Source: a virus
Taxonomy: Duplodnaviria > Caudoviricetes
Reading direction: 5' to 3' (one strand)
DNA length: 41,344 bases
IMG/VR virus record: IMGVR_UViG_3300021408_000013
Location: 1 to 41,344 of that record
The translations under genes and the position numbers were made by a program. How positions within the stretch are numbered: position 1 is the stretch's first letter; every line of letters begins with the position of its first letter. Below, piece by piece: positions 1,635 through 28,127 of the stretch. Under the pieces are notes generated by a model. The model made no database searches. It was not told the origin of the DNA and saw only the letters and a list, made by a program, of their open reading frames with translations.

Positions 1635-2579
1635 TTAACCTTTAGTGCTTCGTAATGCCACGCACCAGCTATCGTCGAGGATTACGGACCCTAGACGACC
1701 CTTCCAGCCCATAGTCTGGCGCTGGTTAAGTGGATCCTGTCCAGCTCCCAACGGCTTTATGATCATTTCCATAGACTGATCGTCGATGGTGATACGGCCG
1801 TAAGCGTTAGCAGCAAACAGAAGGTTGTAATAAACAGCAGGAACTACTGACACGTCTTTATAGGCCTCAGATGTCTTCACGAGGCGAACTTCGTCGCATG
1901 AGCCATACTCAGCTTCAAGCACAGACTGTTGTCGGGGATAATCCGCAGTCGGCAGGAAGTTGGAGAGGTTTTTAAAGTCCGTACGTAGGTCTGTGGAGAT
2001 GATCATCCAGTAAGCAGCCCATACAGGAGCGGTTCCAAAGGCGTTTGTTCCTTCCTGATTAGGGGAAAGTTTTTTGCCGTTGTTGCCTTCCAAGTAGTCT
2101 ACAGCTAATTCTAAGTCTGTAGTTGTGACTTCAGTGATCGCATTTCCATTGACGCCGTTTAAGCAGTCAATTTGTGCGGCTGTAGCCACAAGCATGTTAC
2201 GAACGATTTTGTCGTAGGTAGACGCCATGTTCTGTGCAAGCATGTCTGCAACTTCGTTTGCAGTTTGGTCTTGAACAGTGATTATAACGTCATCTGATAG
2301 CTCAACCACTTTGCCGTATTGGGATACGACGGCAGTGATGTCGAACTTGGTAACTTGCTCAGAAGCAGGTGTAACACCCTCAGTAAGAGGAGTTAACGCG
2401 TCAGCAAGGTTGTCAAATCTACGGAAGATAGCAGTCTTACTATTCTTCTGAGGAATTCTACGCTCTTGCGCAAAATACCCGTGGACGTAGTAAGGCTGGT
2501 GTCTGTCCAGCAATATGTTGTCGAAGAACAAGTTGACTTCTGGGTCCACTTGTACTGTCGTTGTTGTTCCATTAGCCAT
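1635..2579 (-). CDS. Major capsid protein, N4-gp56 family
   Basis: Motifs IPQKNSKTAIFRRF, PLTEGVTP, QYG, DPLNQRQTMGWK, ILDDSW; follows scaffold; AGGAG RBS. Confidence 0.93.
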   Translation of the reverse strand: MANGTTTTVQVDPEVNLFFDNILLDRHQPYYVHGYFAQERRIPQKNSKTAIFRRFDNLADALTPLTEGVTPASEQVTKFDITAVVSQYGKVVELSDDVIITVQDQTANEVADMLAQNMASTYDKIVRNMLVATAAQIDCLNGVNGNAITEVTTTDLELAVDYLEGNNGKKLSPNQEGTNAFGTAPVWAAYWMIISTDLRTDFKNLSNFLPTADYPRQQSVLEAEYGSCDEVRLVKTSEAYKDVSVVPAVYYNLLFAANAYGRITIDDQSMEMIIKPLGAGQDPLNQRQTMGWKGRLGSVILDDSWCVALRSTKG

Positions 2580-3986: not shown

Positions 3987-6047
3987 TTAAACTCCTGTAG
4001 TTATTGGGCTTTTCGCTTTCTGGGCATCCTGAGTTAACTTTTTCTCTGTCAACGCAGCTTGTTTTTGGCTGATATCAGCAGCCAAAGTCATGACATCCAG
4101 TAAACGCTTGCGATCCATGTCCTTGATTTCAGTGACAGTTTTTGCATTATCAAGGAGGGCTTTGGCATAGTTCTGTTCTCCTTCGGAGATTCTCTCTCTA
4201 GCCAATCCGATATCCGCAAGGACTCTAGCTCTACGCTCTTCAGCCAATGCGGTATTTTGATCAATTTGTGACATCTCAAGAGCTTTCTGGATTTGATCTG
4301 CTTCATCCATTTTCTGCTGCTGTTGTTGCTGTTGTTCAGCGCGCTCAGCCATTTTCTCAATGAGTTCAGTTTTACCTTGGAGAGGAGCGGCTTCCATGAT
4401 GTCTTCCCAAGGAATAGGCGCTCCAAGAGAGACGAGTTGAAGGAGTTGATAGTAGTAAGCTTCTCTCTGAGTTGTTGTCTTAACAGCTTGTTTGATGGCA
4501 CAGTCGTATTCGCCGAATTGTCCGGAGAAGAATTCTTCTGTAGGCTCTTTATTCGTTATTCTATGGATCTTCCCTGGCTGATAGTTCTTCTGTATGCACT
4601 CAAGGACGAGCATCCCAACGTATTTCTTTGTCTGTTCAAGGTTATCAAAAATACCGCGGTTACCTTTAAGGCCATTGCTAGATCGAACTTCTGCGAGTTT
4701 TCCCGAAACCTGACTATCACCAGTTGAAGACAACCCAAGCAATTCATCGGAAGCGCCAGGGATTTCCATGATGTTTTTGTCGATGATGTCTTGGTACTGC
4801 AAGTATCCTGGAGGGATGTTCGGTGGTGATATCTCTCTAACGTCCGCATTGACGTCGTATCCATCGTTGACCACAATTTGTCGTCCCTGACCGGCTTGCA
4901 TAAGCATGGTGGGATCCAAAACTGCCCCATTCTTGGTGATCCACCCCGTGTTAATGATGGATTCCATGAGGTCAATGATCTGGCTGTGGCGACGATTGTA
5001 CTGGCGCTGAGCATCGCGTATTGAACGCACAATGCCTTGAATCTTAAGCTCATACGTATCAATTAGTGGTTCGTGGTAAAGGAGCACCGGCATGAATGGA
5101 AAATTATCCAAGCCAGTCGGATCTGGTCCGCTATAGAGTAATTTGCCTCCAACGATGATGTTAAGCTCAACTGTCCGTTTATGGGATGTGATTAACTTCA
5201 CTTGTGGAGTATTAAGAAGGTCTTTCTTAAGTTCTTTCTCTTCTGCTCTAGTACCAAACCATTCTTCTGAAACGCCTGTTTCTTCATCGACAAGGTACTT
5301 TTGAGCCTTATTTATTCTTTTCCAGTATTGGTCATAAGTGACCAAATTCTTAGCAATGTAAGTAGAATTATACTGACGATAGATCCCTAAATATTGATAT
5401 TTGTTGTCTCTGATACCCGTAGGGATCATATCTATCTCTTCCGGATCAATCCACGGAAGCATAGATTTAACTTGTTCTTTCGAGAGAAGATCTCTCGTAG
5501 ATGCCTGGTCACAGTCGCTGAGATCCCTTTTTGTGAAATAAGGGTCTAACATTAGTGCGTTGAAAGGTTTCCAGTAAAATTTGATATCACCGTTGACCTT
5601 ATCTTTCGAGTAGTCCATGTAGATGCCGACGATCGCCAACCCCGTCTTAAGCGCATGCTCAAAGGCTTCTGAGAAGATATAATCTGCATTTCCTTTGTCG
5701 TAGACGTAGTACATAACATTTGAGAAAAGATCTGCCGTGATTTCATCTGACCCCTCAACAGGAGCGGTGACCGTTTGCGTCCTGTTTTCCCTTTCATATC
5801 CGGAGTATAGGTTAACCACTCTTCGGATCTTGTTAAGTTCGAGGACCATACGATTCTGTCTTTCCAGCTTAGTTCTCTCAAGATTCGTCCAGTTATCTCC
5901 CGCGTATGCGCGCAAATCTCGATAAGCTTGGGCATAGAAAACTCCCCATGTACGATATGCGTCGTAGAAGAACTGCTGCCACTGAAAGACTTTATTGTTG
6001 TGGTCTAGCGTGTAGTTGCTTGTTCCGTCTGCTTGAAATGCGTACAT
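3987..6047 (-). CDS. Portal protein (P22-like)
   Basis: 686 aa; LELNKIRRVVN, DPYF..DLSD, GIVRSIRDAQRQYN motifs; C-terminal coiled coil; downstream of TerL. Confidence 0.92.
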   Translation of the reverse strand: MYAFQADGTSNYTLDHNNKVFQWQQFFYDAYRTWGVFYAQAYRDLRAYAGDNWTNLERTKLERQNRMVLELNKIRRVVNLYSGYERENRTQTVTAPVEGSDEITADLFSNVMYYVYDKGNADYIFSEAFEHALKTGLAIVGIYMDYSKDKVNGDIKFYWKPFNALMLDPYFTKRDLSDCDQASTRDLLSKEQVKSMLPWIDPEEIDMIPTGIRDNKYQYLGIYRQYNSTYIAKNLVTYDQYWKRINKAQKYLVDEETGVSEEWFGTRAEEKELKKDLLNTPQVKLITSHKRTVELNIIVGGKLLYSGPDPTGLDNFPFMPVLLYHEPLIDTYELKIQGIVRSIRDAQRQYNRRHSQIIDLMESIINTGWITKNGAVLDPTMLMQAGQGRQIVVNDGYDVNADVREISPPNIPPGYLQYQDIIDKNIMEIPGASDELLGLSSTGDSQVSGKLAEVRSSNGLKGNRGIFDNLEQTKKYVGMLVLECIQKNYQPGKIHRITNKEPTEEFFSGQFGEYDCAIKQAVKTTTQREAYYYQLLQLVSLGAPIPWEDIMEAAPLQGKTELIEKMAERAEQQQQQQQKMDEADQIQKALEMSQIDQNTALAEERRARVLADIGLARERISEGEQNYAKALLDNAKTVTEIKDMDRKRLLDVMTLAADISQKQAALTEKKLTQDAQKAKSPITTGV

Positions 6048-8074: not shown

Positions 8075-8557
8075 ATGAAGATTCAAGTAGACCGTACAAA
8101 CACGCCTGAGGGCGATCTAGTTTTTACAATCACTGTAAAAGAACCGCATCATGCTTGTTTTGATGAAGTTGAAAAAAACCTTATGGGTGTATTGGATTTC
8201 TGTAAAAAAGGCATAGAAGACCTTTCGCCAGAAGATAATAATCTTAGACAAGACGTGGTTTCTCTGATTCATTTGGCTAAAGAAAAAACCTTCAATCGGG
8301 TGTTAAATAGCCTAAAATTTGCAATAAAAGAGCAATTAGAGCCTAAATTCCAGCCAATCTGCCAAGAGATCTTTAACTGGATTCATGATCAGCAAAAGGA
8401 TGTTTTGAAGAATTGGATGAACGAATTCAATACTGAAAGAACGAAATATTACTTCGACAATGATGCGAAGAATAATCAATACTGCCGAGGTCCTTCGACT
8501 ATTGCGGATGACAAGGTTGACGAAGACGACGATGAAGATGAGGATGACGAAGAATGA
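8075..8557 (+). CDS. Hypothetical protein with an acidic tail
   Basis: GAGG RBS; first gene of a plus-strand coupled cluster. Confidence 0.7.
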   Translation: MKIQVDRTNTPEGDLVFTITVKEPHHACFDEVEKNLMGVLDFCKKGIEDLSPEDNNLRQDVVSLIHLAKEKTFNRVLNSLKFAIKEQLEPKFQPICQEIFNWIHDQQKDVLKNWMNEFNTERTKYYFDNDAKNNQYCRGPSTIADDKVDEDDDEDEDDEE

Positions 8558-8790
8558 TAAAAGCGATGCACTACCTGGCAGGAGCCTTATTAATATTAGG
8601 TTTTGCTTATAAAATAGATACATGTGTGAATGTTGCTGCTGGGTTGCTGCTAGGCTTCGGCACTGGCTCGTGGATTCAATACAACTTCGAAACCGCAGCT
8701 CGTCAGAAAGAGATTGCTGAGCTTTCCGAGCTGATCCATCGTTATCTCAAGTCAAAAACCTATGATCCTAACATTCCGGATAGCAAATGA
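8554..8790 (+). CDS. Small membrane protein (two hydrophobic segments)
   Basis: ATGA overlap with the upstream gene; hydrophobic N-terminal half. Confidence 0.6.
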   Translation: MIKAMHYLAGALLILGFAYKIDTCVNVAAGLLLGFGTGSWIQYNFETAARQKEIAELSELIHRYLKSKTYDPNIPDSK

Positions 8791-9041
8791 TTAATGATCT
8801 CACTGGATGGTATAAATTCGTTAATGAAACCCCAAAGTATGGTTCTTATGTTGTTGTTTTTAGAAATAAAAGAAACAAATACATGATCGCTAAACTTGTT
8901 AAATTAACAGCAGATGATGGTGGTGATAAAATTGAGTGGGTAACAGAGCATGGAAATGTTCATTGTCCAGATTGGGAAGATTTATGGTTTCCTTTTCCTA
9001 ACTTAAAAGTTGAGAAAGGAATCACCATAGATGATAGTTGA
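8787..9041 (+). CDS. Hypothetical protein (DUF551-like W...P pattern)
   Basis: WYKFVNETP...LWFPFP; ATGA coupling. Confidence 0.55.
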   Translation: MINDLTGWYKFVNETPKYGSYVVVFRNKRNKYMIAKLVKLTADDGGDKIEWVTEHGNVHCPDWEDLWFPFPNLKVEKGITIDDS

Positions 9042-9657
9042 TTGCATCTCAGACCTTCACGGTTTCAAACCTTCACTTCCAGGTGGCGATCTTTTAATCG
9101 TCGCCGGCGATCTCACCGCTCGTGATATGGTTACCGAGCATCTAGGATTTTCGGGATGGCTATGCAATCAACCGTACGATAAAATCGTACTGATCGCAGG
9201 CAACCATGATGGAAAGATGACTGACTGGAAACCTATGGAGCAAGACAATCTCAGCTATCTTCAAGATTCTGGTGTGGAATACAAAGGTTTAAAGATATGG
9301 GGATCTCCCTGGACGCCCACTTTCTACGATTGGCATTTCATGAAAGATCGTGGAAATCCTATAAAAGTGATGTGGGATTTGATCCCAGACGATACCGAAA
9401 TTTTAGTCACTCATGGCCCTCCTTTTGGTATCCAAGATCAGGTGAAGTACTCAAGCAAAGCACAGGAAGGAAAGTTTGCTGGATGCGAAGAGTTACGAAA
9501 CGCCCTGGACCGTCTAAAAAAGCTCAAGCTTCACGTCTTCGGCCACGTTCATGAAGGCTATGGGAAAGTCATTGTTAATGGTGTCATACACGTCAATGCT
9601 GCTATCATGGATGAAGAATATCGCCCAGTCAACAAACCAATCAGAGTGGAAATATGA
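9031..9657 (+). CDS. Calcineurin-like metallophosphoesterase
   Basis: DLHG, AGD, GNHD, THGPP and GHVHE motifs. Confidence 0.92.
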   Translation: MIVDCISDLHGFKPSLPGGDLLIVAGDLTARDMVTEHLGFSGWLCNQPYDKIVLIAGNHDGKMTDWKPMEQDNLSYLQDSGVEYKGLKIWGSPWTPTFYDWHFMKDRGNPIKVMWDLIPDDTEILVTHGPPFGIQDQVKYSSKAQEGKFAGCEELRNALDRLKKLKLHVFGHVHEGYGKVIVNGVIHVNAAIMDEEYRPVNKPIRVEI

Positions 9658-10088
9658 CCGAAGAAACGATGGAAGAATTCCAAGCTCGCACGCGCAAGGA
9701 GTTTGGCGCCATGTATTATGATCGTCAAGGCAAAGAGATAGAATTGATGGATTGGGGTCATAAATGTGAAGATTTTGACTATAGAATAGTTAAAACGGAA
9801 AATATTGATAGATGGCATGTCAGCACTGTCTGGATAGGATTGAATATGAATCTATTCAGGAAAGGCCCTCCAATTATATTTGAGACGATGATTTTCCTAT
9901 TAGATAAAGATAATCCTGAAAAGGAAAATGATCCCCTGCATCTATACCAAGAGCGTTATCGCACCGAAGAAGAAGCAATTCGAGGACATGAAGAAGCTAT
10001 GTCGGCTTGTCGTGGACAGCTTTTAATTGAGAAGAGAATTAGGGAACTGGAATCCCTGGGGGTGGGAAAAGAGACGGATTCACAATGA
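9654..10088 (+). CDS. Conserved phage hypothetical protein
   Basis: VSTVWIG...FETMIF...RY.T.EEA..GH pattern. Confidence 0.7.
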   Translation: MTEETMEEFQARTRKEFGAMYYDRQGKEIELMDWGHKCEDFDYRIVKTENIDRWHVSTVWIGLNMNLFRKGPPIIFETMIFLLDKDNPEKENDPLHLYQERYRTEEEAIRGHEEAMSACRGQLLIEKRIRELESLGVGKETDSQ

Positions 10089-10494
10089 GATCCTGACCAG
10101 CTAATGTGAACTGTCCCCCTTGTACATATGGAGTAAAATTGCGCCCATCAATGGGAACTGTGTTCCTATCAGCAAGGTAAAAAGTGTTATCTGTGACTCC
10201 CTGTACATAGAATAGTTTATTATTAAGCTGTTCCATGCCTGTTGCAAGAGCAAAAGGAATAGTAATGAACTTAGTAGCTCTAATACTCTGATTATTTTGT
10301 AGTCCATGAGCTGTCTTTGTTACTATCATTGGAAGGGTGTTTGTGATACTTTCGGGTGTGAATTGACGATTTGTGAAATGACTTAGACTAGAGTCCGGAT
10401 TGTTTGGATACGGACTTGCCGGCTGTGTGTCAATGAAATCATACAGCGGCGAAAGCGGATCTTGTGGATTAGGGCCTGAAGTTAAGCTCGTCAT
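10039..10494 (-). CDS. Stand-alone E1-FCCH-like beta-domain protein (possible virion accessory)
   Basis: ITNTLPMIVTKTAHGL...GMEQLNN...TFYL...FTPYVQGG matches domains in 846-1616 and 37823-40267. Confidence 0.7.
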   Translation of the reverse strand: MTSLTSGPNPQDPLSPLYDFIDTQPASPYPNNPDSSLSHFTNRQFTPESITNTLPMIVTKTAHGLQNNQSIRATKFITIPFALATGMEQLNNKLFYVQGVTDNTFYLADRNTVPIDGRNFTPYVQGGQFTLAGQDLIVNPSLFPPPGIPVP

Positions 10495-10565
10495 TTAACA
10501 ACCTAAGTAAATTCTTTACATAAATTCATCTTACTGCGAAAACATAAATAAACCAAGGAGTTTAT

Positions 10566-10721
10566 ATGGCTAAAGCAAAATCAGATCCAGTCTCAAAATT
10601 TGTCACAGGAAATAAGCAAACCAAGGCTCCAAAGCCTAAGAGCTTAACGCCTAAGACTAAATCTACAAAGTCTGGCGACAAAAAACGTGCAGGTGTATTC
10701 GGGAAATCAGTACCATACTAA
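10566..10721 (+). CDS. 51 aa Lys-rich basic mini-protein (not in the ORF track)
   Basis: AAGGAG RBS at 10555-10560; MAKAKSDPVSKFVTGNKQTKAPKPKSLTPKTKSTKSGDKKRAGVFGKSVPY. Confidence 0.7.
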   Translation: MAKAKSDPVSKFVTGNKQTKAPKPKSLTPKTKSTKSGDKKRAGVFGKSVPY

Positions 10722-10840
10722 AAAGTATGGTTCCCCCGTCTCCGGCTACCAAAAACACGAGGGCGTTGCACGTCTGCTTTTACTTTGGTCGCCACACCCT
10801 TCCCATTTTTATTTTAAAACGCAACGGTTCCAATCGTTTC

Positions 10841-10949
10841 GGGTTCGACTCGAACCCAAATTAGTAAGCAGCCTGACGCGTCTGACCCCCAAGCGCTTGA
10901 GGACTACGGCTATTCGTCTTTTACGCCGGCTGTAAACACCGGATCAGGC
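10841..10949 (-). ncRNA. Candidate structured RNA
   Basis: GCCTGA/TCAGGC closing stem (10871-10949) encloses hairpins; separate GGGTTCGA/TCGAACCC inverted repeat at 10841-10857. Confidence 0.3.
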
Positions 10950-10969
10950 ATTGTGACTGGGCCGCACAC

Positions 10970-11185
10970 CTAGCTTACTAAATTCTTCAAAAACGCTGCT
11001 ACCAGCAATTCTGATTCTGACATCTTATCACCGCAAAGAGTACAAATCAACTGATAAGCACTTCGGCCTATCAACATGGTCTTCCCAGCTCCGCAATTCT
11101 CGCATACTGGATAAGGCTCATCTCCCAAGAATGTGCTCTTTGCCAGGGCTACGGGATGACTAGATCCCCATTCAGCCTCTAACAT
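10970..11185 (-). CDS. Small zinc-ribbon protein
   Basis: CENC...CTLC; ATG at 11185 preferred over the upstream TTG. Confidence 0.5.
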   Translation of the reverse strand: MLEAEWGSSHPVALAKSTFLGDEPYPVCENCGAGKTMLIGRSAYQLICTLCGDKMSESELLVAAFLKNLVS

Positions 11186-11297
11186 ATGCCCTCTTATGTT
11201 TTCGCCATAGACCAGGCGTAATTTTAGCTCCTGAGTAGGCAAAGTCCAAGATAGACCTTAATTCCTTACGAAGTTTTTTAACTCTTGTCTTTCTCAT
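11172..11297 (-). CDS. 41 aa basic mini-protein (not in the ORF track)
   Basis: ATGA overlap with the stop of 11294-12208; MRKTRVKKLRKELRSILDFAYSG... Confidence 0.5.
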   Translation of the reverse strand: MRKTRVKKLRKELRSILDFAYSGAKITPGLWRKHKRAYVRG

Positions 11298-12208
11298 TCT
11301 TCACCTTCCTTTCTTAAAATTGCCATCAAATCCCATAAATTATCCTCCAAACAGGAGATTTTTACTCGCAAATCGTCCAATTTCTGGTCAAATTCAGGGT
11401 TTTCTGACGTCCAAAGGGGGTCAAATGCCGATTTATGGAAAATATCTTCATCCAAGATGTTTTTTAGTCTTTCCTGTGCGCGTCCGAAATCCTCAAGCCT
11501 TGAAATGGCTGCGATCGGGAATGCTTTCATGGGATCGAGGCCTCTTGCCTTCATGACATCCCAGATATTATCCTGGCATTCTGTCTTTTTCTTCTGTGCT
11601 TCGAGGTAAGCCATCCAACGAATCATCACGCGAAGCATTGCTCTGAAAGATTCATCTGGCCGGCAATCGGACTGAACGTACTTCCATCCAAGACGAATGC
11701 ACTCCTCTAAATCCTTCGCGCAGTCTCCAGAAGGTTTGAATAATTCCTCTTGAAAATCAGGAATTGGGATTCCCTTAGGAGTCGCGCCAATCTTTACCTG
11801 AATATGCTCGCCAGGTTTTGTGCATCCAAAATCAGGACTTGCAGGTCCAAGCAAATGTTCGCTTACTCCGGCAATCTTGCAGTGATCCGGCCATTGCTCA
11901 TATGGCACGCGTTTTCGCATGAGCTGCGTAAAATCATCAAAGGTATCACTGATCTTCTGGTACGCTTCCAGGATTTCATTCTTATAGGCTTCATTGAGTG
12001 GTTGCATCTTCATCCTCACATATCTGTAGGGTGGATTCAGATTTGAATCCTCTTCCATCTTCCATTTATCGTTTATGATCAATTCTTCGAGTCGGCAGCC
12101 ATCTTTATCAACAACTTCTCGTACGACGACTTTAGTGATTGGCTCAGGGAAGTCAATGTGTCCGTATCCTCCGCAGAGCTTACAGTCCCCGTTGCAACAT
12201 TCGCACAT
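11294..12208 (-). CDS. Hypothetical protein with an N-terminal Cys cluster
   Basis: 304 aa; CECC...CKLCGG. Confidence 0.7.
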   Translation of the reverse strand: MCECCNGDCKLCGGYGHIDFPEPITKVVVREVVDKDGCRLEELIINDKWKMEEDSNLNPPYRYVRMKMQPLNEAYKNEILEAYQKISDTFDDFTQLMRKRVPYEQWPDHCKIAGVSEHLLGPASPDFGCTKPGEHIQVKIGATPKGIPIPDFQEELFKPSGDCAKDLEECIRLGWKYVQSDCRPDESFRAMLRVMIRWMAYLEAQKKKTECQDNIWDVMKARGLDPMKAFPIAAISRLEDFGRAQERLKNILDEDIFHKSAFDPLWTSENPEFDQKLDDLRVKISCLEDNLWDLMAILRKEGEE

Positions 12209-12275
12209 GACATCATCCTTTCATATTCTTCATGAGTTACTGGAATCCAATTAGGTTCTGGAAGCCTTTCTGCGG

Positions 12276-12665
12276 TCAGATTCTCCCCTTCGGAGATGGG
12301 TATGGTAGCGGCATAGAGTCGCTTGAATCGTTCTTGCATTCTCTCTCCAAATACCAAATGGCTTTCTTTAAATCCTGGACTTTGCTACCTTTCTTGCCAG
12401 CGCGTAGGATATACTTGATCGCATTGCCTAAATGGAAGCCGAGTTCAAAATCTTCGATGATGTCGATAGACTCGAACTTCTTTCCTTGATAATGCGATGG
12501 ATGGTTTACAGCTTCTTCTTGTTGAAGAGCGTCTAGTAAACACATTCTATCTTCGCCTTGTAAAGCGGCTTTACATCCATTACATGGACAAGGAATCGGA
12601 AATGGAATATCCCTCAGTTTCAAAAGTTCCTGATAAGCTGCTTCCTTCTCTTCTCTTGACATCAT
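12276..12665 (-). CDS. DUF3310 family protein (T7 gp1.7 nucleotide-kinase-like)
   Basis: VNHPSHY...ESIDII...FHLGNAIKYILRAGKKG...DLKKAIWYL. Confidence 0.85.
   Translation of the reverse strand: MMSREEKEAAYQELLKLRDIPFPIPCPCNGCKAALQGEDRMCLLDALQQEEAVNHPSHYQGKKFESIDIIEDFELGFHLGNAIKYILRAGKKGSKVQDLKKAIWYLERECKNDSSDSMPLPYPSPKGRI
12559..12575. promoter_or_regulatory. TGTAAA-N5-TTTACA palindrome
   Basis: TGTAAAGCGGCTTTACA; near-identical copies at 27324 and 37513. Confidence 0.5.
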
Positions 12666-12862
12666 CAATACACCACCCAAGAGTTGATCCAATTCATGAA
12701 ATCCGTGTAGGTGAAAAGCCAATAGAGGACGTAAACCCATCCGCAAAACATATGAAGAATCGCAAAGAAAATGGACTTGTTAATTGCATATGACAGAGCT
12801 ATTGCAATCACTCCGCCTGGTATGGCACTTCGTCCATACACTCTTGTTGTATTCGACATCAA
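12665..12862 (-). CDS. Small membrane protein
   Basis: IAIALSYAINKSIFFAILHMFCGWVYVLYW, hydrophobic. Confidence 0.65.
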   Translation of the reverse strand: MMSNTTRVYGRSAIPGGVIAIALSYAINKSIFFAILHMFCGWVYVLYWLFTYTDFMNWINSWVVY

Positions 12863-13014
12863 TCTCCGCTCGGCGTAATTCTAAGTTTATCATTCAAGAT
12901 GAAGTACTCCCACATCGTCAGATCTGGGTAGTACTTCTTCACGGCATTAAATTCTGCCTGAGTCCAATAGTAGCCTATGATCAAAGCTATTATAAAGAGC
13001 CAGATACGCCACAT
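12859..13014 (-). CDS. 51 aa membrane-anchored mini-protein (not in the ORF track)
   Basis: MWRIWLFIIALIIGYYWTQ...; overlaps both neighbours at start/stop codons. Confidence 0.55.
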   Translation of the reverse strand: MWRIWLFIIALIIGYYWTQAEFNAVKKYYPDLTMWEYFILNDKLRITPSGD

Positions 13015-13256
13015 TACTCGACCACTGGCGCTGGTTCTTCTACTACTGACTGTGGTTGTTCAACTGGCTGCACTGGCGGTTGCATCGCCGGCATCGGGTT
13101 GACTGGAGGTAGCACTGGAGTTACCAGGATATTAAACTGGTTTCCAGCAGCTACGCCCATTCCTTGGACTTCAAGGAACTGCACAGACTCCGGACGGAAT
13201 ACGGCTTTCAAAGCGTCGATTCCTGCTTCATCACACAAAAGTAAGTATTGCTTCAT
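13014..13256 (-). CDS. Hypothetical protein with a Pro/Val/Gln-rich tail
   Basis: AAGGAG RBS, coupled to the upstream gene. Confidence 0.6.
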   Translation of the reverse strand: MKQYLLLCDEAGIDALKAVFRPESVQFLEVQGMGVAAGNQFNILVTPVLPPVNPMPAMQPPVQPVEQPQSVVEEPAPVVE

Positions 13257-13462
13257 GCCATCTCCTTGGTCTTCTCTTGAATCTCGATTTCAATTTCATT
13301 GACTTCCACTAGGCCGTCAATCTTATAAACTTTCACAATTCCTGGCGCATCGCGGAATGCTTGCGCCACATCCAGAATAGAATCAGTAAAGATCGACGTA
13401 AACACATTATCTCTACGATTGCCACACATTGAGTCTTGGCCTTTTAAAAGAATTAAATACAT
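13253..13462 (-). CDS. Hypothetical protein
   Basis: 69 aa, TAATG coupling. Confidence 0.6.
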   Translation of the reverse strand: MYLILLKGQDSMCGNRRDNVFTSIFTDSILDVAQAFRDAPGIVKVYKIDGLVEVNEIEIEIQEKTKEMA

Positions 13463-14406
13463 TATTCGTCGTCCTCCTCATCGTCTTCTTCATCTTTCTG
13501 CTCTGGAGCTGGCGCCCCTTGAGCAAGCTTTTGCTTTAGACCATTAAGCTTCTGAGTCACAGTCTTGCGCTCATCTTGAGCTGCGATATAGCGCTTCATG
13601 CACGACGTCACAGTCTCCAAAGCTTGCTGCTCTTTCTGTTTAAGATGCTCTTCTGCATCTGTGTAGACCTTAAAAAGGTCTTTCAGCTCTTCGCTGACAT
13701 CTACGCCTATCACTTGTTTACCCTCCTGCCATTGTTTCTTCAAATCTTCTCCAAATCCTCTTAGGAATGAATCCATCATTATATTCTCCTTCTCTGTTGA
13801 TCTTAAGTTTACCGTCCAAGAGTCATTTAGAATCTTGTTGTTGTTCCCTTGCTTATACCCCATCGGCTGAGGAAAACCAAGTAAAGCTTTCACTAGAATA
13901 TCTAATTGTTCCTCTGGAGGCAATAGATTATCGAACCTTCTGAAGATCATCGTAGGCATCGGAGTGCTTAATAGCTTCGGATCGAAATGTTCTAGGATCT
14001 CCGGAGGTCTAATCTTCTTAGTAAAGCTTTGCTTAGGAGTTTTGGGTTTGTATCTACGGAAGATGCACGGCTTACCGTTTCTCATTCCTGGCGTGTCTAC
14101 AGCTTCCAATTTCCAGTAGGCATCGCGTACGGGTGCAGTCCCAAAGCGCTGATATTCAGAATCGCTCTCAGGATCGTGATCTCCCCAGAACTTATTCCAT
14201 CCAAGATAAGCTTGGCGATAAACGTCCTCTAAACTTTCCTTTTCACGCTTCGCTGCCCAGCCTGCTCGCTCTCGCCATCCAAGGATGTCTTTCTCATTGA
14301 TTGTCCATCTAATCGTCGGCACTTCCTTCCCTCTCTTGTAGTCGATTTCCATCATCGCGCTTCGGCGCTTATTCAGTTCGAGCTGAAGATCTCTTAGACT
14401 ATTCAC
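13462..14406 (-). CDS. Protein carrying scrambled MCP-like peptides plus a C-terminal coiled coil and acidic tail
   Basis: FGTAPVRDAYW, NGKPCIFRRY, TMIFRRFDNL and QPMGYK...ILNDSWTVNLRST match segments of the MCP at 1635-2579. Confidence 0.8.
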   Translation of the reverse strand: MNSLRDLQLELNKRRSAMMEIDYKRGKEVPTIRWTINEKDILGWRERAGWAAKREKESLEDVYRQAYLGWNKFWGDHDPESDSEYQRFGTAPVRDAYWKLEAVDTPGMRNGKPCIFRRYKPKTPKQSFTKKIRPPEILEHFDPKLLSTPMPTMIFRRFDNLLPPEEQLDILVKALLGFPQPMGYKQGNNNKILNDSWTVNLRSTEKENIMMDSFLRGFGEDLKKQWQEGKQVIGVDVSEELKDLFKVYTDAEEHLKQKEQQALETVTSCMKRYIAAQDERKTVTQKLNGLKQKLAQGAPAPEQKDEEDDEEDDE

Positions 14407-14677
14407 CTCTAGCCTCAGAAAGATCTGCTCTTAGTGTTTTCAAACGTTGTTCTTCCTGATTTAGAACTCTAATCCAATCAATGTATTGAATAAGATGGCT
14501 ATGCTTTCTTCCTAGCAGGCTCTTATCAAAAGCTTCCTTGTCAGCTTTAAACTGATCCAACATCGCCTTATGATCATTCAGTCTTTTTAAACAGTCTTCC
14601 ACGTTGTTAGTCAAAGCTTTACCCCTTTTGGCTAAAGGTTTCCAGTCGGTTACATTTTGTAATCTACTGAATATCAT
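14399..14677 (-). CDS. Hypothetical helical protein
   Basis: 92 aa; overlaps the start of the downstream gene. Confidence 0.6.
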   Translation of the reverse strand: MIFSRLQNVTDWKPLAKRGKALTNNVEDCLKRLNDHKAMLDQFKADKEAFDKSLLGRKHSHLIQYIDWIRVLNQEEQRLKTLRADLSEARGE

Positions 14678-14709
14678 AAGGAATTTTTTATAGTAAAGAA
14701 TTATTTTAC

Positions 14710-14776
14710 TTATCCGGAAATTCCGGATAACTCAGGGACATGTCCCTTAAATGTCCCGTCCCTGTCCCGTGTCCCC
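14710..14776. repeat. Cluster of palindromes and GTCCC repeats
   Basis: TTATCCGGAA-A-TTCCGGATAA (14710-14730), AGGGACATGTCCCT (14734-14747), five GTCCC units. Confidence 0.75.
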
Positions 14777-14971
14777 TTACATGAAATCTCTCCACGACAT
14801 ACCCAGGCAGTCCATACAGTTGCCGCAAGGATTCCGCTCACAACAGCAAGAGCACTCTTCTTCCTCGTCTTCATCCGGATCAAAATCCTCATCCTCTTCC
14901 TCTACAAGATCCTTACCTTGCCAGCTATCTAAGTCCGACTTATCCCACTGACTCCAGTAAGGTCCACACAT
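14777..14971 (-). CDS. Small acidic Cys-rich protein
   Basis: Poly-D/E tract followed by CSCCC...CGNCMDC. Confidence 0.6.
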   Translation of the reverse strand: MCGPYWSQWDKSDLDSWQGKDLVEEEDEDFDPDEDEEEECSCCCERNPCGNCMDCLGMSWRDFM

Positions 14972-15270
14972 TAAGTATTCGCCTGGTTCGAGTCCGGTTC
15001 AGGATCTACATGGCTTGCCGTAGATTGTAGGAAGAAACACACCTGCGCGTCCTCTAAGCATCTAATCTTCCTCTTCAGTCTCTTAACCTCTTCCACGATG
15101 GAAAGCAGCGCTACCGGCAAGCTAAACTCGTCCTTAAGGTAATCCGGTAGCTTATCACTACTAAACTCGTTCTTATACTTAATCACCATCTCATCATGCT
15201 GTTTCTTCGCGCTCTCCGCATGGCGGTAAAACGTCTCTTCCAAAAACTCCAGCTCATATCTGTCCATCAC
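14971..15270 (-). CDS. Hypothetical protein
   Basis: GGGGAG RBS; TAATG coupling to the next gene. Confidence 0.6.
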   Translation of the reverse strand: MMDRYELEFLEETFYRHAESAKKQHDEMVIKYKNEFSSDKLPDYLKDEFSLPVALLSIVEEVKRLKRKIRCLEDAQVCFFLQSTASHVDPEPDSNQANT

Positions 15271-15579
15271 TACTCCCCTTGTAAATAGGTTTTTTTATAT
15301 GACAATAAATTTTTTGAAAAGAATTTTCTTCAGCTAGTAAGGAATCCTTACCAGTTCCAGGAGAGAATGTGAAAAGTTTTTATTTGTTTGAGAAAAGGAT
15401 TTAGATGTGACCGAGGTCTGGGATATATATATTCATAGTACCGGTTCTAGTTAAGGACACACACCCACCCTTCATTTCTGAGGTTTAAACGGGGCTAGGG
15501 GTGTCTAGGTCGATGGTAACTAAGGGTTGAGTAACCAACCGATTGGATAGAGCCTATATGATATGCCCTCACACTATAG

Positions 15580-16008
15580 CTATGATGGCTCGGCAGGGTT
15601 CTTACTCTTATTCACTATGAAGTCAAAGGCTGCTGTAGCTATATCCTTAGCTGCATTCTGTGCCTCTGATTGTTCCCAACCTCTATGCTTAGCCTGTGTC
15701 TTTAACACAAAGAGTTGCAAGGTTGTATCATTTGAATCAACCGCACGTTGAAAGACTGATTCTTCAAGCTCATCAATCTGTCTTTCTCTGCAATCCTTTA
15801 GTAGTTGCTTGAGTTCTTCATCTTTGTCAACGTTGGCGCGTATCGTGCCACGTGTTGAGCCTAACGCATCTGCAACGCGTGATAGGTTGCCTGAGGTCTT
15901 AACGATGAGATCGGCGATGCTTTTCTTATCAAGTGGAATACCTGGGCGAGGCTGTTTAGCTTTTTCGCCTAGCTTATTACCTTTTTTAGTTGATGGAAAC
16001 CCAGCCAT
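15580..16008 (-). CDS. terS: Putative terminase small subunit (N-terminal HTH)
   Basis: GNLSRVADALGSTRGTI HTH, then IDELEESVF...TTLQLFVLKTQAKHRGW, a TerS-like pattern. Confidence 0.7.
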   Translation of the reverse strand: MAGFPSTKKGNKLGEKAKQPRPGIPLDKKSIADLIVKTSGNLSRVADALGSTRGTIRANVDKDEELKQLLKDCRERQIDELEESVFQRAVDSNDTTLQLFVLKTQAKHRGWEQSEAQNAAKDIATAAFDFIVNKSKNPAEPS

Positions 16009-16150
16009 GTTATGCTCATGTTTTAGTTATGCTATACGCCTCAGGCCGGCGAGGGCCTTTGCTCAAGACTGATTATACTAATCACCTTAACATATCAAAC
16101 GCTTTACTCGTCAAGTCTTTATTTTAATTCATGTATTTTCACCATCAAGC

Positions 16151-16179
16151 TTGCGTTAAATCATACCACATGTTATATT
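16151..16179 (+). promoter_or_regulatory. Sigma70-type promoter for the early gene cluster
   Basis: TTGCGT-N17-TATATT with TG extension; imperfect inverted repeat flanks the -10 box. Confidence 0.55.
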
Positions 16180-16295
16180 ACATGGTATAACAGCGAAAAC
16201 GATTAGTGCTTAGTGATAAGATCCTAAGTGACGAAAGAAGAGTAAGTGTTATGTGTGTAGAGAGTAAAGCTTAACGTAAACAATAGAGGGATAAC

Positions 16296-16475
16296 ATGAG
16301 CGCACTAGATAAAGAAATGAAAGAATGGTTGTTAGAATGCTTTAGCGATGAATACGACCAAGAACAGATTGAAGAATTGACACACGATCAATTAGTGCGG
16401 TCAATTAATAGATACTTTGATGGTGGTATGAAGGCATTTGTTGCGTGTTCCGGTTGGGTAATGGTGGAGGCGTAA
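16296..16475 (+). CDS. 59 aa acidic protein (not in the ORF track)
   Basis: GAGGG RBS; MSALDKEMKEWLLECFSDEYDQEQIEELTHDQLVRSINRYFDGG... Confidence 0.65.
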   Translation: MSALDKEMKEWLLECFSDEYDQEQIEELTHDQLVRSINRYFDGGMKAFVACSGWVMVEA

Positions 16476-16476
16476 G

Positions 16477-16749
16477 ATGGAATTAGTTTACCTAGAAGAT
16501 ATGCTGAGTGATGAAGCTATAGAGGAAATATGCCAGTCAGGTAGTAATGACGAGGCAGTTAAGAAATGGACAAATGAATATCTTCATGAGATGGGGCGGT
16601 TAAATATCTGTCCTTTTGCTTGTAAGAAGATGTTAGAGGGTTATGACTTTGGACCTGTTGAGGATAAAATGGAATGGATGGAGCGTGCAATATGGTGCGC
16701 TGCCTGGAATGTATTTGAATCAAGTAATCAAATGGAGATGACACAATGA
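16477..16749 (+). CDS. Acidic hypothetical protein
   Basis: GGAGG RBS; member of the coupled early cluster. Confidence 0.7.
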   Translation: MELVYLEDMLSDEAIEEICQSGSNDEAVKKWTNEYLHEMGRLNICPFACKKMLEGYDFGPVEDKMEWMERAIWCAAWNVFESSNQMEMTQ

Positions 16750-17033
16750 GATATACAAAAGCAGAGATTAAAGGAATGTTCGGAAGATTAGCAAAAGCAA
16801 TGGGCAAGCGTGAAGATGCCGGCAGTTATAACGGTTTGTGCTTGGATTATGCGCCTATCTACGGCGGTTATGTGATTGAGGAATTAGGGCCGGAGGGCGG
16901 TTGCAGTCATCCATTTGGAAGTTTAAGAAGAAGTGGGCGTGAGATGTATTTATCAATGTATATGGCAGCTACAGCGCTTGAAGATTTGAAGTGGAAGCAA
17001 GAACAGTTGAATAAATATGAGGTGGTATCATGA
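16746..17033 (+). CDS. Hypothetical protein
   Basis: LDYAPIYGGY motif; ATGA coupling. Confidence 0.7.
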   Translation: MRYTKAEIKGMFGRLAKAMGKREDAGSYNGLCLDYAPIYGGYVIEELGPEGGCSHPFGSLRRSGREMYLSMYMAATALEDLKWKQEQLNKYEVVS

Positions 17034-17218
17034 AGCCTATCAAAGAGTTAATTTGTTGCTGCTGTGGAAATCAGACATCCGGCCGGCAATGGTGGAATAG
17101 GGATACTGGATACGGTCTTTGTGTGAAATGTGCTGAGGTAATCAGCAAGAAAGAGGATGAAGAAACAATGAAATCTTGCTACGGCGAGAAAGGGAAACAT
17201 TATGCAATTGCTAAGTAA
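17030..17218 (+). CDS. Small Cys-rich protein
   Basis: CCCCG...QWWNRDTGYGLCVKC. Confidence 0.65.
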   Translation: MKPIKELICCCCGNQTSGRQWWNRDTGYGLCVKCAEVISKKEDEETMKSCYGEKGKHYAIAK

Positions 17219-19289: not shown

Positions 19290-20014
19290 TCAAAAAGACG
19301 AAAGATTATGATTTATTCACGTTTAGAGATGACAACCGCGAGAAGATAGACCAAGCGCACATAAAAAGGCTTATTGAGTCAATCACATCGAGAAACTTGC
19401 TTGAGTTAAGACCTATCATCGTTAATGAGAAAATGGAAGTGATAGACGGCCAACACCGGCTATTAGCTGCTAAACATTTACAGGTTGAAATATACTACCA
19501 GCAAGAAAAGAAATTGGACGCTGCGGATATTGTCCGCATGAATATAAGCAAGCCTTGGACGATGGGCGACTATCTAAATTTTTACTGTCATCATCAATAT
19601 GATGAGTATAAGAAGCTTTCAAGCTTCATGAAGCAACATAATTTAACTCTTAAAGTAGCGTTGACCATAGCACTTGGACAAGCGCGATTAGGGTTTTATG
19701 AATTCAGAATGGGAGAATTTAAGTTTCATGAAGAATCGTTAGACATCGAATTAGATGTATGCTGGGACTCAATAAACTACATAAAGAAGATGAACGGATT
19801 CAGCCCGTACACCTCCTCAAGTAGATTCTGGAAAGCTCTTTTAAAACTGATTAGGCATCCAGAATTTGACGAAACAAAATGGCGGTCGAACATGCAAAAG
19901 ATGATTGATCATTTCTCTCCGAAAGCGCGAACAGAAGATTACGTGAATATGATACAGACTGTTTATAATTGGCGCAATACTTCAAGAATTAACTTAATGG
20001 ATGATGATATATGA
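19286..20014 (+). CDS. ParB/Srx-like N-terminal domain protein
   Basis: PIIVNEKMEVIDGQHRLLAA. Confidence 0.8.
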   Translation: MIKKTKDYDLFTFRDDNREKIDQAHIKRLIESITSRNLLELRPIIVNEKMEVIDGQHRLLAAKHLQVEIYYQQEKKLDAADIVRMNISKPWTMGDYLNFYCHHQYDEYKKLSSFMKQHNLTLKVALTIALGQARLGFYEFRMGEFKFHEESLDIELDVCWDSINYIKKMNGFSPYTSSSRFWKALLKLIRHPEFDETKWRSNMQKMIDHFSPKARTEDYVNMIQTVYNWRNTSRINLMDDDI

Positions 20015-20751
20015 AATATTTAATTTACTTGCGTGTATCAACTGATTTACAAGATACAGAAACACAATTAGATCATTGCTTAAGATTCATTAAGCAAAGA
20101 GATAATACAAACTTTGAATATGAAGTATTTAGAGATAAAATCACCTCTCGAAAGGAATTGTTTAAAAGAGAGGGTGGTAAAGAAATGTTTAGTAGATTAA
20201 AGCGCGGAGATATTATAATCTCAATCCGTTTAGACAGGATAGCTAGAAAGCTTTACGAAACTACACAGCTTATTGATGTCTTAGATAAGGCCGGCGCTGA
20301 GATCTTGTTAGTAGATCAGCCAGGCATTACAAACAAGATTATGCTAGGCCTTTATGCCGGCATGGCTGAAGAAGAAGTGAAACTATTGCGTAAGCGCGTG
20401 AAAGAGAAGCTTGAGACTAAGAAGAATCGCGGAGAGAGATACTCGCGCTTTCTGCCTTATGGCTATGGACTTCATGAAACAAAATTAGTGCCTATTAAAG
20501 TCGGCGATGAAGTGGTAATGAAGCGAGGCGTGCTTGTTCCAATATATGAGGAACAAGAGGTACTTGCTCGGATGTATCAATTATCTGCTGAGGGTATGAG
20601 CCATCAAAGGATTGCGAAGGCTCTAACTGAGTCGGGGTATATGAATCGGGAAGGGCGTCCATTTCAAAAGATGAGCATTTACCGCATTCTTTCCCGAAAA
20701 GAGAATACCACGTCATCGGATCAACTTCAAGAGGCGATAGCAGCTCGCTAG
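20011..20751 (+). CDS. Serine recombinase (resolvase/invertase family with a C-terminal DNA-binding domain)
   Basis: YLRVST catalytic Ser motif, RLDRIAR, PYGY, C-terminal HTH. Confidence 0.9.
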   Translation: MKYLIYLRVSTDLQDTETQLDHCLRFIKQRDNTNFEYEVFRDKITSRKELFKREGGKEMFSRLKRGDIIISIRLDRIARKLYETTQLIDVLDKAGAEILLVDQPGITNKIMLGLYAGMAEEEVKLLRKRVKEKLETKKNRGERYSRFLPYGYGLHETKLVPIKVGDEVVMKRGVLVPIYEEQEVLARMYQLSAEGMSHQRIAKALTESGYMNREGRPFQKMSIYRILSRKENTTSSDQLQEAIAAR

Positions 20752-21148
20752 TCTCATTAATAATAATAATAGTTTTCGGGTATGGGTGGTAAAGCTTTAC
20801 GCTGTCACCCAGACTCACTTTCTGGTCGCCATCGAAGCAAATACCATCCATACAATCGAGATAAAGCTTTATGAAATTATCTGTATCAGGCTTTTTCTCG
20901 TGCTTGAGCAGACCAGATAAATAAAGCGGTAACATCCGTTTCGGAATGCTCTTAGGAATAGGCATATGGAATATAAAACTAACACGGGGATGCCTAAAAA
21001 GAGGATAACGAATATGTTTAATAGCAATGATCTCTTTGAGTTCTGCTTTTGCTTTTTGTCTGGGGTCATAAATCCTTCCTATACCGTTTCTTCCTGAATA
21101 CTTCATTCTAATTTGCGCGATTGGATCGCCTGGGAGAATGAGTTTCAT
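20495..21148 (-). CDS. rusA: RusA-family Holliday junction resolvase with a C-terminal extension
   Basis: KKPDTDNFIKLYLDCMDGICFDGDQKV; FHMPIPKS. Confidence 0.88.
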   Translation of the reverse strand: MKLILPGDPIAQIRMKYSGRNGIGRIYDPRQKAKAELKEIIAIKHIRYPLFRHPRVSFIFHMPIPKSIPKRMLPLYLSGLLKHEKKPDTDNFIKLYLDCMDGICFDGDQKVSLGDSVKLYHPYPKTIIIINETSELLSPLEVDPMTWYSLFGKECGKCSSFEMDALPDSYTPTQLEPSQSFDGSYPQQIIDTSEQVPLVPHILEQARLASLPLHRRL

Positions 21149-25961: not shown

Positions 25962-26150
25962 ATGAACAACCTAAACGAAAAAATGCAAGAAAGGCTCGAA
26001 AAGTGGAGAAAACACACTTTGGTCGTGCCTTCGGCCGCAAAGTTAAGACCCGAAAAAGCCACAAACCGTGGTGGTAAGGGCGACTATGGCGACGCTCTTT
26101 CTATGGAAGAGTGGGAAAACGAAGCTAAGAAGAGTCAAACAAGGAGATGA
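25962..26150 (+). CDS. Hypothetical protein
   Basis: AAGGA RBS; fills the operon gap. Confidence 0.5.
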   Translation: MNNLNEKMQERLEKWRKHTLVVPSAAKLRPEKATNRGGKGDYGDALSMEEWENEAKKSQTRR

Positions 26151-26151
26151 A

Positions 26152-26970
26152 ATGGAAACAGGACTGGCGGTTAGACCGCAAAGCAATGAGTTGACCGTGA
26201 CTCGTGCTTCGATACCGTCGGAGCATGAGATGATGGTTTACCATACGATGGCTGAACAGGCCGTATCAAGCAAAATGTACAAAGGCATAGGAGAGAAAGC
26301 CGGCGTGATGATGATCATGCTTGCAGCCCGTGAGCTTGGCATCCCTCCCATGCAGGCCCTTAACGGAGGAATTAACATCATAAGTGGGAAGGTCGAAATT
26401 TCAGCACGTATGATGAACGCATTAATCCGCAAAGCAGGCCACCAAATTCAAGTGAAAGAGTGTACAGATAATCAATGCGTATTGATAGGAAAAAGATGCG
26501 ACACAGGAGAGAGCCAATATTCTTCTTTCTCAATTCCAGAAGCTCAAAAGGCTGGATTGATCAAGCAAGGCGGAGGATGGACAAAGTTTCCTAAAGACAT
26601 GTGCTTTGCTAGAGCGCTTAGCCGTCTAGCGAGACAGCTATTTAGCGACGTGATCGGCATCGGATACATAGAAGGGGAAATAAATCAAGCCGCTGAAATA
26701 AAAACTTCGGAAATTTCTGAAGTAATTGCGGAGGAACTCCCTCTAATTGAAGAAGTTGTGGTTGAAAATGAGCAGGAATATATAGAGAAATTTCTCAACC
26801 TTTTTGACAAAGAAGATAAACACCATGCAATGCAATATTTGAAAGTGGTGATGAAACACTTTGAATGGAGTTCCATTCAAGCTATCAAAGAGCTTCTCAA
26901 AGACGAGAAGAAACTTTTTGATAAGTTCAATGCCTGGAAAAACAAACTCAAAAAAGCGGAGGAAGTATGA
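26152..26970 (+). CDS. RecT-like single-strand annealing protein
   Basis: AARELGIPPMQALNGGINIISGK...AGL...W.KFPKDM.FARA; AAGGAG RBS before the ATG at 26152. Confidence 0.8.
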   Translation: METGLAVRPQSNELTVTRASIPSEHEMMVYHTMAEQAVSSKMYKGIGEKAGVMMIMLAARELGIPPMQALNGGINIISGKVEISARMMNALIRKAGHQIQVKECTDNQCVLIGKRCDTGESQYSSFSIPEAQKAGLIKQGGGWTKFPKDMCFARALSRLARQLFSDVIGIGYIEGEINQAAEIKTSEISEVIAEELPLIEEVVVENEQEYIEKFLNLFDKEDKHHAMQYLKVVMKHFEWSSIQAIKELLKDEKKLFDKFNAWKNKLKKAEEV

Positions 26971-27340: not shown

Positions 27341-27657
27341 TGAACGAGGATAAAACTTGTACCCTTTGTGGGCGTTTCTATAGGGGAGACGGTCACAAAG
27401 GGGTTTGTACAAGTGAATGTTATTGGAAAGGCGTTTACGCCAAGAAGCATAAGAAGACTGTAAAGCCAGCGGTTCTTCATTATAAGCAGGAACCAAAAGA
27501 ATCAGCGATACAGAAAGCAAATGCAAAGTGGCTGAAGGACGAAAAGCCTAAGCCAAAAACTAGAAAAGAAAAAAATCGAATAGAGCGAATCTTAGCCACG
27601 AAGCATGTGCGTCATGATGAATGGTCAGGCAAGCAATATAGATCGGTTAGAGGATAA
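27340..27657 (+). CDS. Basic Zn-binding protein
   Basis: CTLCG...CTSEC. Confidence 0.55.
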   Translation: MNEDKTCTLCGRFYRGDGHKGVCTSECYWKGVYAKKHKKTVKPAVLHYKQEPKESAIQKANAKWLKDEKPKPKTRKEKNRIERILATKHVRHDEWSGKQYRSVRG

Positions 27658-27683
27658 ACAAATGAAATCAGGATGGGATAATT

Positions 27684-27815
27684 ATGCCTCTGAAAAAAGG
27701 TACGTCCAAAAAGGTTATTTCCGGAAATATAGCGACGGAAGTTCGGGCCGGAAAACCCGTGAAGCAAGCCGCCGCGATAGCGTACAGCAAAGCCGGAAAG
27801 AGCAAAAAGAAGTAG
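27684..27815 (+). CDS. 43 aa Lys/Ala-rich basic mini-protein (not in the ORF track)
   Basis: [43 protein letters not shown], a recognisable small phage protein pattern. Confidence 0.8.
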
Positions 27816-27956
27816 CAATTCAGTCGTACGGTAAATGCGTACTACTGACTGAAGCCGTAGTGCCAAATGAACCATTCACAGCGGATGAAGCAATGGCATT
27901 GCAGATTTATGAAAATGCTTTGAAAGAAGCAGCACCAAAATTAAAGGAGATTGAAA

Positions 27957-28127
27957 ATGGCCAAAGCGAAGTTGGGGTCGGGCAGCCGATTCAAAGCAGT
28001 GGAAAAAGCGGCAGCGAAGTCAGGGGCAGCCAATCCGGCAGCCGTGGCAGCAAAAGCCGGAATGGCAAAGTACGGAAAAGCAAAGATGGAAAAGATGGCA
28101 GTAGCAGGAAAGAAGAAGGCTAAATAG
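27957..28127 (+). CDS. 56 aa Lys/Ala-rich basic mini-protein (not in the ORF track)
   Basis: AAGGAG RBS; MAKAKLGSGSRFKAVEKAAAKSGAANPAAVAAKAGMAKYGKAKMEKMAVAGKKKAK. Confidence 0.8.
   Translation: MAKAKLGSGSRFKAVEKAAAKSGAANPAAVAAKAGMAKYGKAKMEKMAVAGKKKAK

Follow-up and report, generated by a model that had tools for sequence, protein, structure and literature searches.

A phage accessory gene assembled from fragments of capsid and portal proteins

Why should a tailed phage keep an accessory gene that repeats pieces of its own major capsid protein (MCP)? The question arose from one open reading frame (ORF) of the window, by which we mean the whole stretch of DNA analysed (41,344 nt). This 41.3-kb sequence is that of a tailed phage with a terminase, a P22-like portal, an N4-gp56-type MCP, lambda-like replication genes and a serine recombinase. 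In the ORF, the initial annotation had reported four MCP-like segments.

The mosaic ORF and its parts

The ORF, here called the mosaic ORF, sits in an accessory-gene run behind the probable terminase small subunit. The genes concerned are the following.

1635..2579, (-) strand: own MCP, N4-gp56 family (TIGR04387, E 2.6e-56; its model matches the N4 capsid 9e99, E 5e-9)
3987..6047, (-) strand: own portal, P22-like (PF16510, E 5e-75)
15580..16008, (-) strand: probable terminase small subunit, first gene of the run in which the mosaic ORF lies (phrog_309, E 3.4e-6; synteny in relatives)
13462..14406, (-) strand: mosaic ORF, 314 aa; overlaps at both ends, its GTG start with the upstream stop and its stop codon with the next ATG

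Relatives of the mosaic ORF start at the equivalent place, and GAGG at 14413–14416 precedes the GTG. The window encodes a terminase, a portal, a gene in scaffold position and an MCP, and does not qualify as a satellite. No close cultured phage was found (best tblastn identity 32%). The host clues were one MCP homologue labelled Candidatus Rhabdochlamydia and one gene of the mosaic family on a 10.9-kb contig of a Bacteroidales bin.

Other features of the phage were recorded alongside. The terminase genes lie about 7.6 kb apart, and the accessory genes between them include an opposite-strand block, 8075–10088 (+), with a metallophosphoesterase. E1-FCCH-like domains occur in three proteins (846–1616, 10039–10494 and 37823–40267), one of them in the accessory region. 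The genes for the serine recombinase (20011–20751, +) and RusA (20495–21148, -) overlap tail to tail by about 250 bases, as they do in L081. MCP genes of relatives were often interrupted, at several positions (L057, L064, L065, L067, L069, L070, L073, L077, L080 and L094); the inserts of L069 and L094, likely introns, contain endonuclease-like ORFs. That the modules might be decoy sites for intron endonucleases was considered and rejected, as the introns of related MCP genes lie at positions (about 34, 68, 89, 102, 124–140 and 277) outside the main modules.

Along the mosaic protein, the parts listed below were recognised; counts refer to the 178 listed relatives introduced in the next section.

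14347..14403, (-) strand: portal piece, aa 2–20 = portal 341–360 (HHalign probability 88.5, E 2.7e-6; 30 of 178)
14182..14229, (-) strand: possible portal piece, weak, aa 60–75 = portal 23–38 (HHalign E 0.004; 13 of 178)
14113..14151, (-) strand: MCP 179–191 piece, aa 86–98; foreign-lineage type, with R where the own lineage has W
14050..14088, (-) strand: second copy of MCP 43–55, aa 107–119; own-lineage type
13945..14010, (-) strand: MCP N-arm pieces, aa 133–154; MCP 11–24 weak, MCP 22–32 of foreign-lineage type
13924..13953, (-) strand: MCP 49–58 piece, aa 152–161; own-lineage type
13873..13914, (-) strand: probable MCP helix 152–165 piece, aa 165–178; foreign-lineage type (1/200 shuffles)
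13795..13869, (-) strand: MCP C-terminal piece 288–312, aa 180–204; the commonest module (93 of 178)
13519..13713, (-) strand: long helix, aa 232–296, conserved (pLDDT >90); the carrier, found alone in many relatives
13465..13500, (-) strand: acidic tail, present across the alignment of relatives

Residues 86–204 are mostly tiled by MCP fragments, which follow one another in the order 179–191, 43–55, 11–24, 22–32, 49–58, 152–165 and 288–312. All four segments of the initial annotation were recovered where it had placed them: aa 88–98 against MCP 181–191 (9/11 identical), aa 109–119 against 45–55 (6/11), aa 152–161 against 49–58 (9/10) and aa 180–204 against 288–312 (14/25). In a shuffle control against the own MCP, three of them (ungapped scores 64, 54 and 46) exceeded the best of 300 shuffles (44), whereas the score of aa 109–119 (35) is not significant, lying below a level attained by nine of 300. 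Against a library of MCP windows, the score of the latter segment was reached by none of 200 shuffles. Different codons at most shared residues, a further part of the claim, were found in the first (5/9), third (7/9) and fourth (9/14) segments; in aa 109–119, just one of six identical residues differs in codon. The copy at aa 107–119 was present in only three of the 178 proteins and is likely a recent insert; it shares 23 of 28 bases with a 98%-identical MCP gene.

The linkers had been called unrelated, which is wrong: aa 143–154 (0/200 shuffles) and 165–178 (1/200) match distant-lineage MCPs, aa 133–146 do so weakly (8/200), and aa 2–20 are portal sequence. The resemblance of aa 60–75 to the portal is not significant within the mosaic protein alone, 74 of 200 shuffles reaching the score. 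No source was found among MCP, portal or other phage proteins for aa 29–39, aa 207–219 or the C-terminal helix. An origin of aa 235–246 in TerS was rejected, the resemblance being at chance level. The MCP segments are indeed permuted and most of the HK97-type fold is missing; there is no spine helix, and MCP 83–135 (spine helix 105–133) was matched by only 1–2 of the 178 listed relatives. A decayed second MCP is ruled out by the portal pieces and the permuted order. The observation of capsid matches was thus confirmed as real and found to be understated. Overlooked were the portal pieces, the modular shuffling, the stand-alone helix gene, the internal starts and the presence of the same motifs on unrelated genes.

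Modules, donors and selection across the family

Searches returned 38 homologues of the mosaic protein at 39–76% identity. A profile search found 225 proteins; among the best 150 of the 225, 139 were new, and the analysed set comprised 39 + 139 = 178 relatives. We scanned these with 22 profiles of 16 phage proteins. The MCP profiles matched 96 and 89 of the listed relatives and the portal profiles 12 and 21, while the 18 profiles of 14 other phage proteins had 0–5 matches each (1.8 expected). By these profile matches, MCP and portal were shown to be the only donors among the 16 phage proteins scanned.

The modules were counted by region in the 178 listed relatives: MCP C-terminus (93), MCP 177–194 (60), MCP 43–61 (58), portal 338–362 (30), MCP 19–44 (20), portal 18–40 (13), MCP 5–33 (12) and four others (4–7). 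The test regions were picked after the matches were seen, and twelve control regions were matched by 0–5 of the relatives each, a level at which the rarest modules stand. MCP 62–170 was likewise matched by 0–5 of the 178. The best nine-residue identity between lineages is 0.54–0.61 for this skipped stretch and 0.38–0.65 for the retained parts; since it is as conserved between lineages as they are, retention of the modules is selective and not a detection bias.

At least one module of 10–25 residues was present in 114 of the 178 listed relatives, in 51 different arrangements. The C-terminal helix was found in 154 (90 with modules, 64 without detected modules), and 24 had modules without the helix. 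Late start calls or split genes, as seen in G024, may account for some of the short forms. In L099 (1757–2720), the modules lie in another order and are spread over two adjacent genes; this phage and L110 (2031–2534) are distant phages with the same modules on other carriers and in another order. The gain, loss and reordering of modules among relatives is shown at the level of sequence. Repeated origins are not proven, because the helix tree required 41 changes against 49 in shuffled data and only six of its 151 branches were well supported.

Within the own lineage, nine of 20 genomes carried the helix gene, in each case no more than about 3 kb behind the terminase small subunit; none was seen in the other 11. 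With 64 of the 178 relatives lacking a detected module as well, the family gene is dispensable. In 50 records from more distant lineages, of which 28 were at least 90% complete, it was absent and only the MCP region was matched.

The motifs also occur outside the family. The MCP C-terminal motif lies inside an unrelated gene, a homologue of window 27605–28123 (+), in three of 20 genomes (G008 20557–21099, G010 25975–26439 and G022 16566–17135); the window copy is without it. One further carrier is found in the window.

12591..12641, (-) strand: portal-like helix module (portal about 530–546) at the front of the DUF3310 gene 12276–12746; score 43 against 39 for the best of 12 shuffles

This module is shared with the family proteins P0179 and P0039 and, among eight homologues of the DUF3310 gene, with one, that of L101. 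The true start of the DUF3310 gene is probably near 12665, at MM. Such matches show that MCP and portal motifs have been grafted onto unrelated accessory genes. Two neighbouring genes were noted separately. Window 10970–11242 (-) has at 11150–11185 an MCP 220–231-like motif in the form of family proteins P0037, P0166 and P0205, which was not significant in a shuffle test and is absent from the gene's one homologue. Window 11294–12208 (-) belongs to another family, in which short N-terminal modules form a variable string ahead of a conserved C-terminal domain; no structural-protein source was found.

Selection was estimated with a codon model on eight genes. Omega was 0.16 overall, 0.14 for the MCP pieces, 0.13 for the N-terminal part and 0.10 for the helix, and fixing it at 1 cost 215, 75, 33 and 85 log-likelihood units, respectively (for the MCP pieces, 2dlnL 149). 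The closest pair, L101 and L102, has a dN of 0.06 and a dS of 0.55. Identity was 0.66–0.71 in motif columns versus 0.38 in the linker. At aa 151–165, 62% of the codon pairs for the same residue differ, and the fused junctions, found in no MCP, are conserved. Since junctions unique to the mosaics were kept while synonymous sites diverged, selection acted after assembly. The gene is real, as the initial annotation supposed, and in many relatives its motifs are retained under purifying selection and show no neutral decay. Nor was near-identical donor DNA, the mark of recombination debris, found: when 19 mosaic genes were compared with 149 MCP and 114 portal gene stretches, identity was at most about 88% over 32–34 bases, and the segments are not recent DNA copies of any sampled MCP gene.

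The donor lineage was assessed by comparing the modules with 205 own-lineage and 168 other MCPs. Foreign MCPs fit better for 48 of 49 modules of type 179–191, 48 of 48 (22–32), 44 of 45 (MCP helix 152–165), 16 of 17 (11–24) and 47 of 71 (C-terminus), the patterns for the 22–32 and MCP helix modules having been defined from foreign resemblance itself. For the 49–58 module, the own lineage fit better in 54 of 57. At position 187, 44 of 49 modules have R or K, whereas 227 of 229 own-lineage MCPs have W and 116 of 117 others R; the basal own-lineage MCP P0159 also has R. The suggestion that the pieces were captured from related phages agrees with these results, as most of them fit foreign lineages better than the own MCP, namely MCPs just 35–39% identical to it. 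Among 372 MCPs, the one that fits best as a single donor shares 39% identity with the own MCP (summed score 233; own MCP 195; per-module optimum 295). The case for several donor lineages is weakened because seven of the 372 MCPs combine three diagnostic features, and one distant or ancestral donor followed by own-lineage refreshes is possible.

Predicted structure and internal starts

AlphaFold modelled the mosaic protein with a pTM of 0.27, low confidence over most of aa 86–207 and one confident helix (238–296). A fold search with this model, limited by its low confidence, gave no PDB match and no BFVD match below E 0.86, and the ESM Atlas gave no usable match for either half of the protein. 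The pieces are predicted to be largely unfolded, with no capsid-like fold, and the long C-terminal helix (aa 232–296) is likely a coiled coil. As a mimic of a folded capsid subunit the protein does not hold up; it appears to be a string of linear motifs.

Shine-Dalgarno-like sites accompany in-frame starts at V1, V29, M210/211 and V232. The three predicted internal starts are as follows.

14320..14334, (-) strand: V29 (GTG 14322), 286-aa product; Shine-Dalgarno-like, -6.3 kcal/mol; equivalent in six of nine gene DNAs
13777..13791, (-) strand: M210 (ATG 13779), 105-aa product; AAGGAG, -8.4 kcal/mol; five of nine gene DNAs, M in 35 of 39 proteins
13711..13727, (-) strand: V232 (GTG 13713), 83-aa helix-only product; AGGAGG, -10.3 kcal/mol, the strongest in the gene; eight of nine gene DNAs

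The V232 site is kept in eight of nine gene DNAs, against a background of seven among 115 internal starts of five further genes in the window, and its equivalent is V or M in 27 of the 33 proteins that have a residue at this point. From these conserved internal ribosome-binding sites, nested products are predicted with lengths of 314, 286, 105 and 83 residues; the gene has the appearance of a small helix gene extended forward with its old starts retained. A promoter and terminator scan of 9900–16600 gave 12 and 9 sites, respectively, against 12.1 and 5.9 expected; a promoter-scan site scoring 10/12 at 13806–13778 overlaps an internal ribosome-binding site.

Possible functions

The modules derive from an N4-gp56 MCP (TIGR04387, PF25209) and a P22-like portal (PF16510). 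Unlike these proteins, the mosaic protein has no family match, no spine helix and no predicted globular fold, and the order of its segments is permuted. It (P0001) had no capsid match in Pfam, PHROGs or NCBIfam and no match to defence or anti-defence families in PADLOC, Pfam, PHROGs or NCBIfam, nor any in 50,697 phage records.

We tentatively favour, at not quite an even chance, a multi-bait decoy for host anti-phage proteins that bind capsid and portal. Each module would most likely work alone as a linear motif, because the modules are independent in number, order and carrier. From its position behind the terminase small subunit and its overlapping start and stop codons, the gene would be made late, with the head proteins. 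The internal starts would yield a strong helix-only product and weaker longer ones, and an oligomer of the helix would display differing bait sets. The baits would bind host anti-phage proteins without setting them off. Sensors, proteases or stoichiometric assembly blockers, whether encoded by the host or by resident prophages, would in this way be kept busy, and the real MCP and portal would be spared.

Four modules (152–165, 179–191, 218–233 and 305–312) lie in a confidently modelled part of the MCP model that we take, from HK97 anatomy, to be the A-domain. According to the accessible part of a report on Avs sensors, Avs7, 8 and 10 bind the hexon- and penton-forming face of the MCP A-domain, Avs11 responds to the portal, and sensors of known structure recognise folded monomers across extensive surfaces (10.64898/2026.01.04.697583). 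In the accessible text of other sources, CapRel and Thoeris sense capsid (PMC9712102, PMC12578639) and HigC reads the unfolded structural protein gpV as a peptide (10.1101/2024.02.24.581848). The donors of the modules are exactly MCP and portal, which are known triggers, and host recognition is the known reason for a phage to care, an analogy that argues for a decoy. The 51 arrangements among 114 carriers suggest the turnover typical of conflict, and the mixed set of own and foreign modules would suit a target able to recognise many lineages better than one specific to a single capsid. Against a decoy, short unfolded pieces may not fill large sensor surfaces, and sensed peptides, in the HigC source as accessible, trigger rather than block (10.1101/2024.02.24.581848), binding without activation being an assumption. 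The dispensability of the family gene, with no module detected in 64 of the 178 listed relatives, also weighs against it. Its foreign-type majority of modules would fit a weapon against rival phages equally well.

Such a weapon, the main rival reading but one that we consider unlikely, would be an assembly poison: the pieces would replace matching elements in the capsid and portal contacts of competing phages and stall head assembly at co-infection or prophage induction. Subunits of HK97-fold structures contact one another through the N-arm, the E-loop strand and the last strand, which counts for a poison. So do the better fit of five of the six tested modules to foreign MCPs, the R or K that the modules share with them at position 187, the best single donor at 39% identity to the own MCP (233 vs 195) and the absence of the family gene from the 50 foreign-lineage records, 28 of them at least 90% complete. 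However, the 49–58 module is of own type in 54 of 57 and a recent own-type copy has been added here, which would risk self-poisoning. The foreign type may merely reflect an old capture, the basal own-lineage P0159 also having R. The gene, moreover, lies in an apparently late run and not among lysogeny genes, and hosts shared by both lineages are an assumption.

Two readings fit worse than decoy or poison. It is quite improbable that the protein helps the phage's own head assembly, its pieces docking on free monomers of the own MCP and portal, where they would set the pace of assembly, shield exposed faces from sensors or bring the carrier into the head. The own-type 49–58 module and the position behind the terminase small subunit point that way, as does the statement in the accessible part of the Avs report that sensors target monomers (10.64898/2026.01.04.697583), but most modules do not track the own MCP, the arrangement is unstable and the gene is absent from over half of the close relatives. 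Recombination debris is very improbable and largely refuted by selection; on this reading, fragments would have piled up ahead of a small helix gene, their frame kept open just for translational coupling and their low omega inherited from the donors. The strongest start does bypass all modules, many relatives are without modules, and the commonest module is the MCP end, which adjoins a ribosome-binding site in both genes and would offer a shared DNA foothold, but the conserved junctions amid divergent codons, the low dN of L101 and L102 relative to dS, the neglect of the equally conserved MCP 62–170 and the ceiling of about 88% DNA identity to any sampled MCP gene all stand against it.

Short MCP-derived peptides and small proteins that act on heads have precedents. 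The Gol peptide of T4, which acts with Lit, is a short MCP peptide active alone; it is part of the MCP and triggers defence. The satellite head redirectors CpmAB, Sid and TcaP are small proteins that redirect head assembly and are folded or scaffold-like. The mosaic protein differs from Gol in not being part of the MCP, and from the redirectors in being an MCP-derived string in a full phage. It resembles ChAD elements and gpV as sensed by HigC, described in the accessible text of that source, in being a disordered string of short aromatic motifs and a structural protein in linear peptide form; unlike ChAD, which is host-encoded and part of an antitoxin, it is encoded by the phage and its motifs copy capsid and portal sequence (10.1101/2024.02.24.581848). 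With Ocr-type anti-defence proteins it would share the decoy logic of imitating what a defence binds, whereas those proteins, in the accessible parts of the sources, mimic DNA or soak up nucleotides (PMC12409349, 10.1101/2025.06.06.658234). The main text of EVADES, as accessible, has 0 occurrences of 'capsid'. In the literature searched, which largely leaves aside subscription journals, there was no described phage protein built of capsid or portal fragments. The anatomy of the gene, read from its sequence, is solid and undescribed in the searchable literature.

Among the major triggers of bacterial immunity are MCP and portal, both hard to mutate, and in the literature searched we came across no description of a phage protein that meets this problem with copies of its own trigger motifs. 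With up to seven pieces in one frame and predicted nested starts, the family is a clear case of new genes arising by accretion of structural-gene fragments ahead of old start sites. The segments that it singles out, about six from the MCP and two to four from the portal, could each be synthesised as a peptide. Under decoy and poison alike, these segments would be usable as bait for sensors or testable as assembly inhibitors. It is possible, though not probable, that phages run a modular 'epitope library', in which short conserved motifs of own and rival capsids and portals are joined as portable baits to carrier proteins and nested polyepitope strings neutralise, at one time, several host systems for pattern recognition or for blocking assembly. 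If so, the retained motifs would be a map of what bacterial immunity, or rival phages, read on the capsid and portal.
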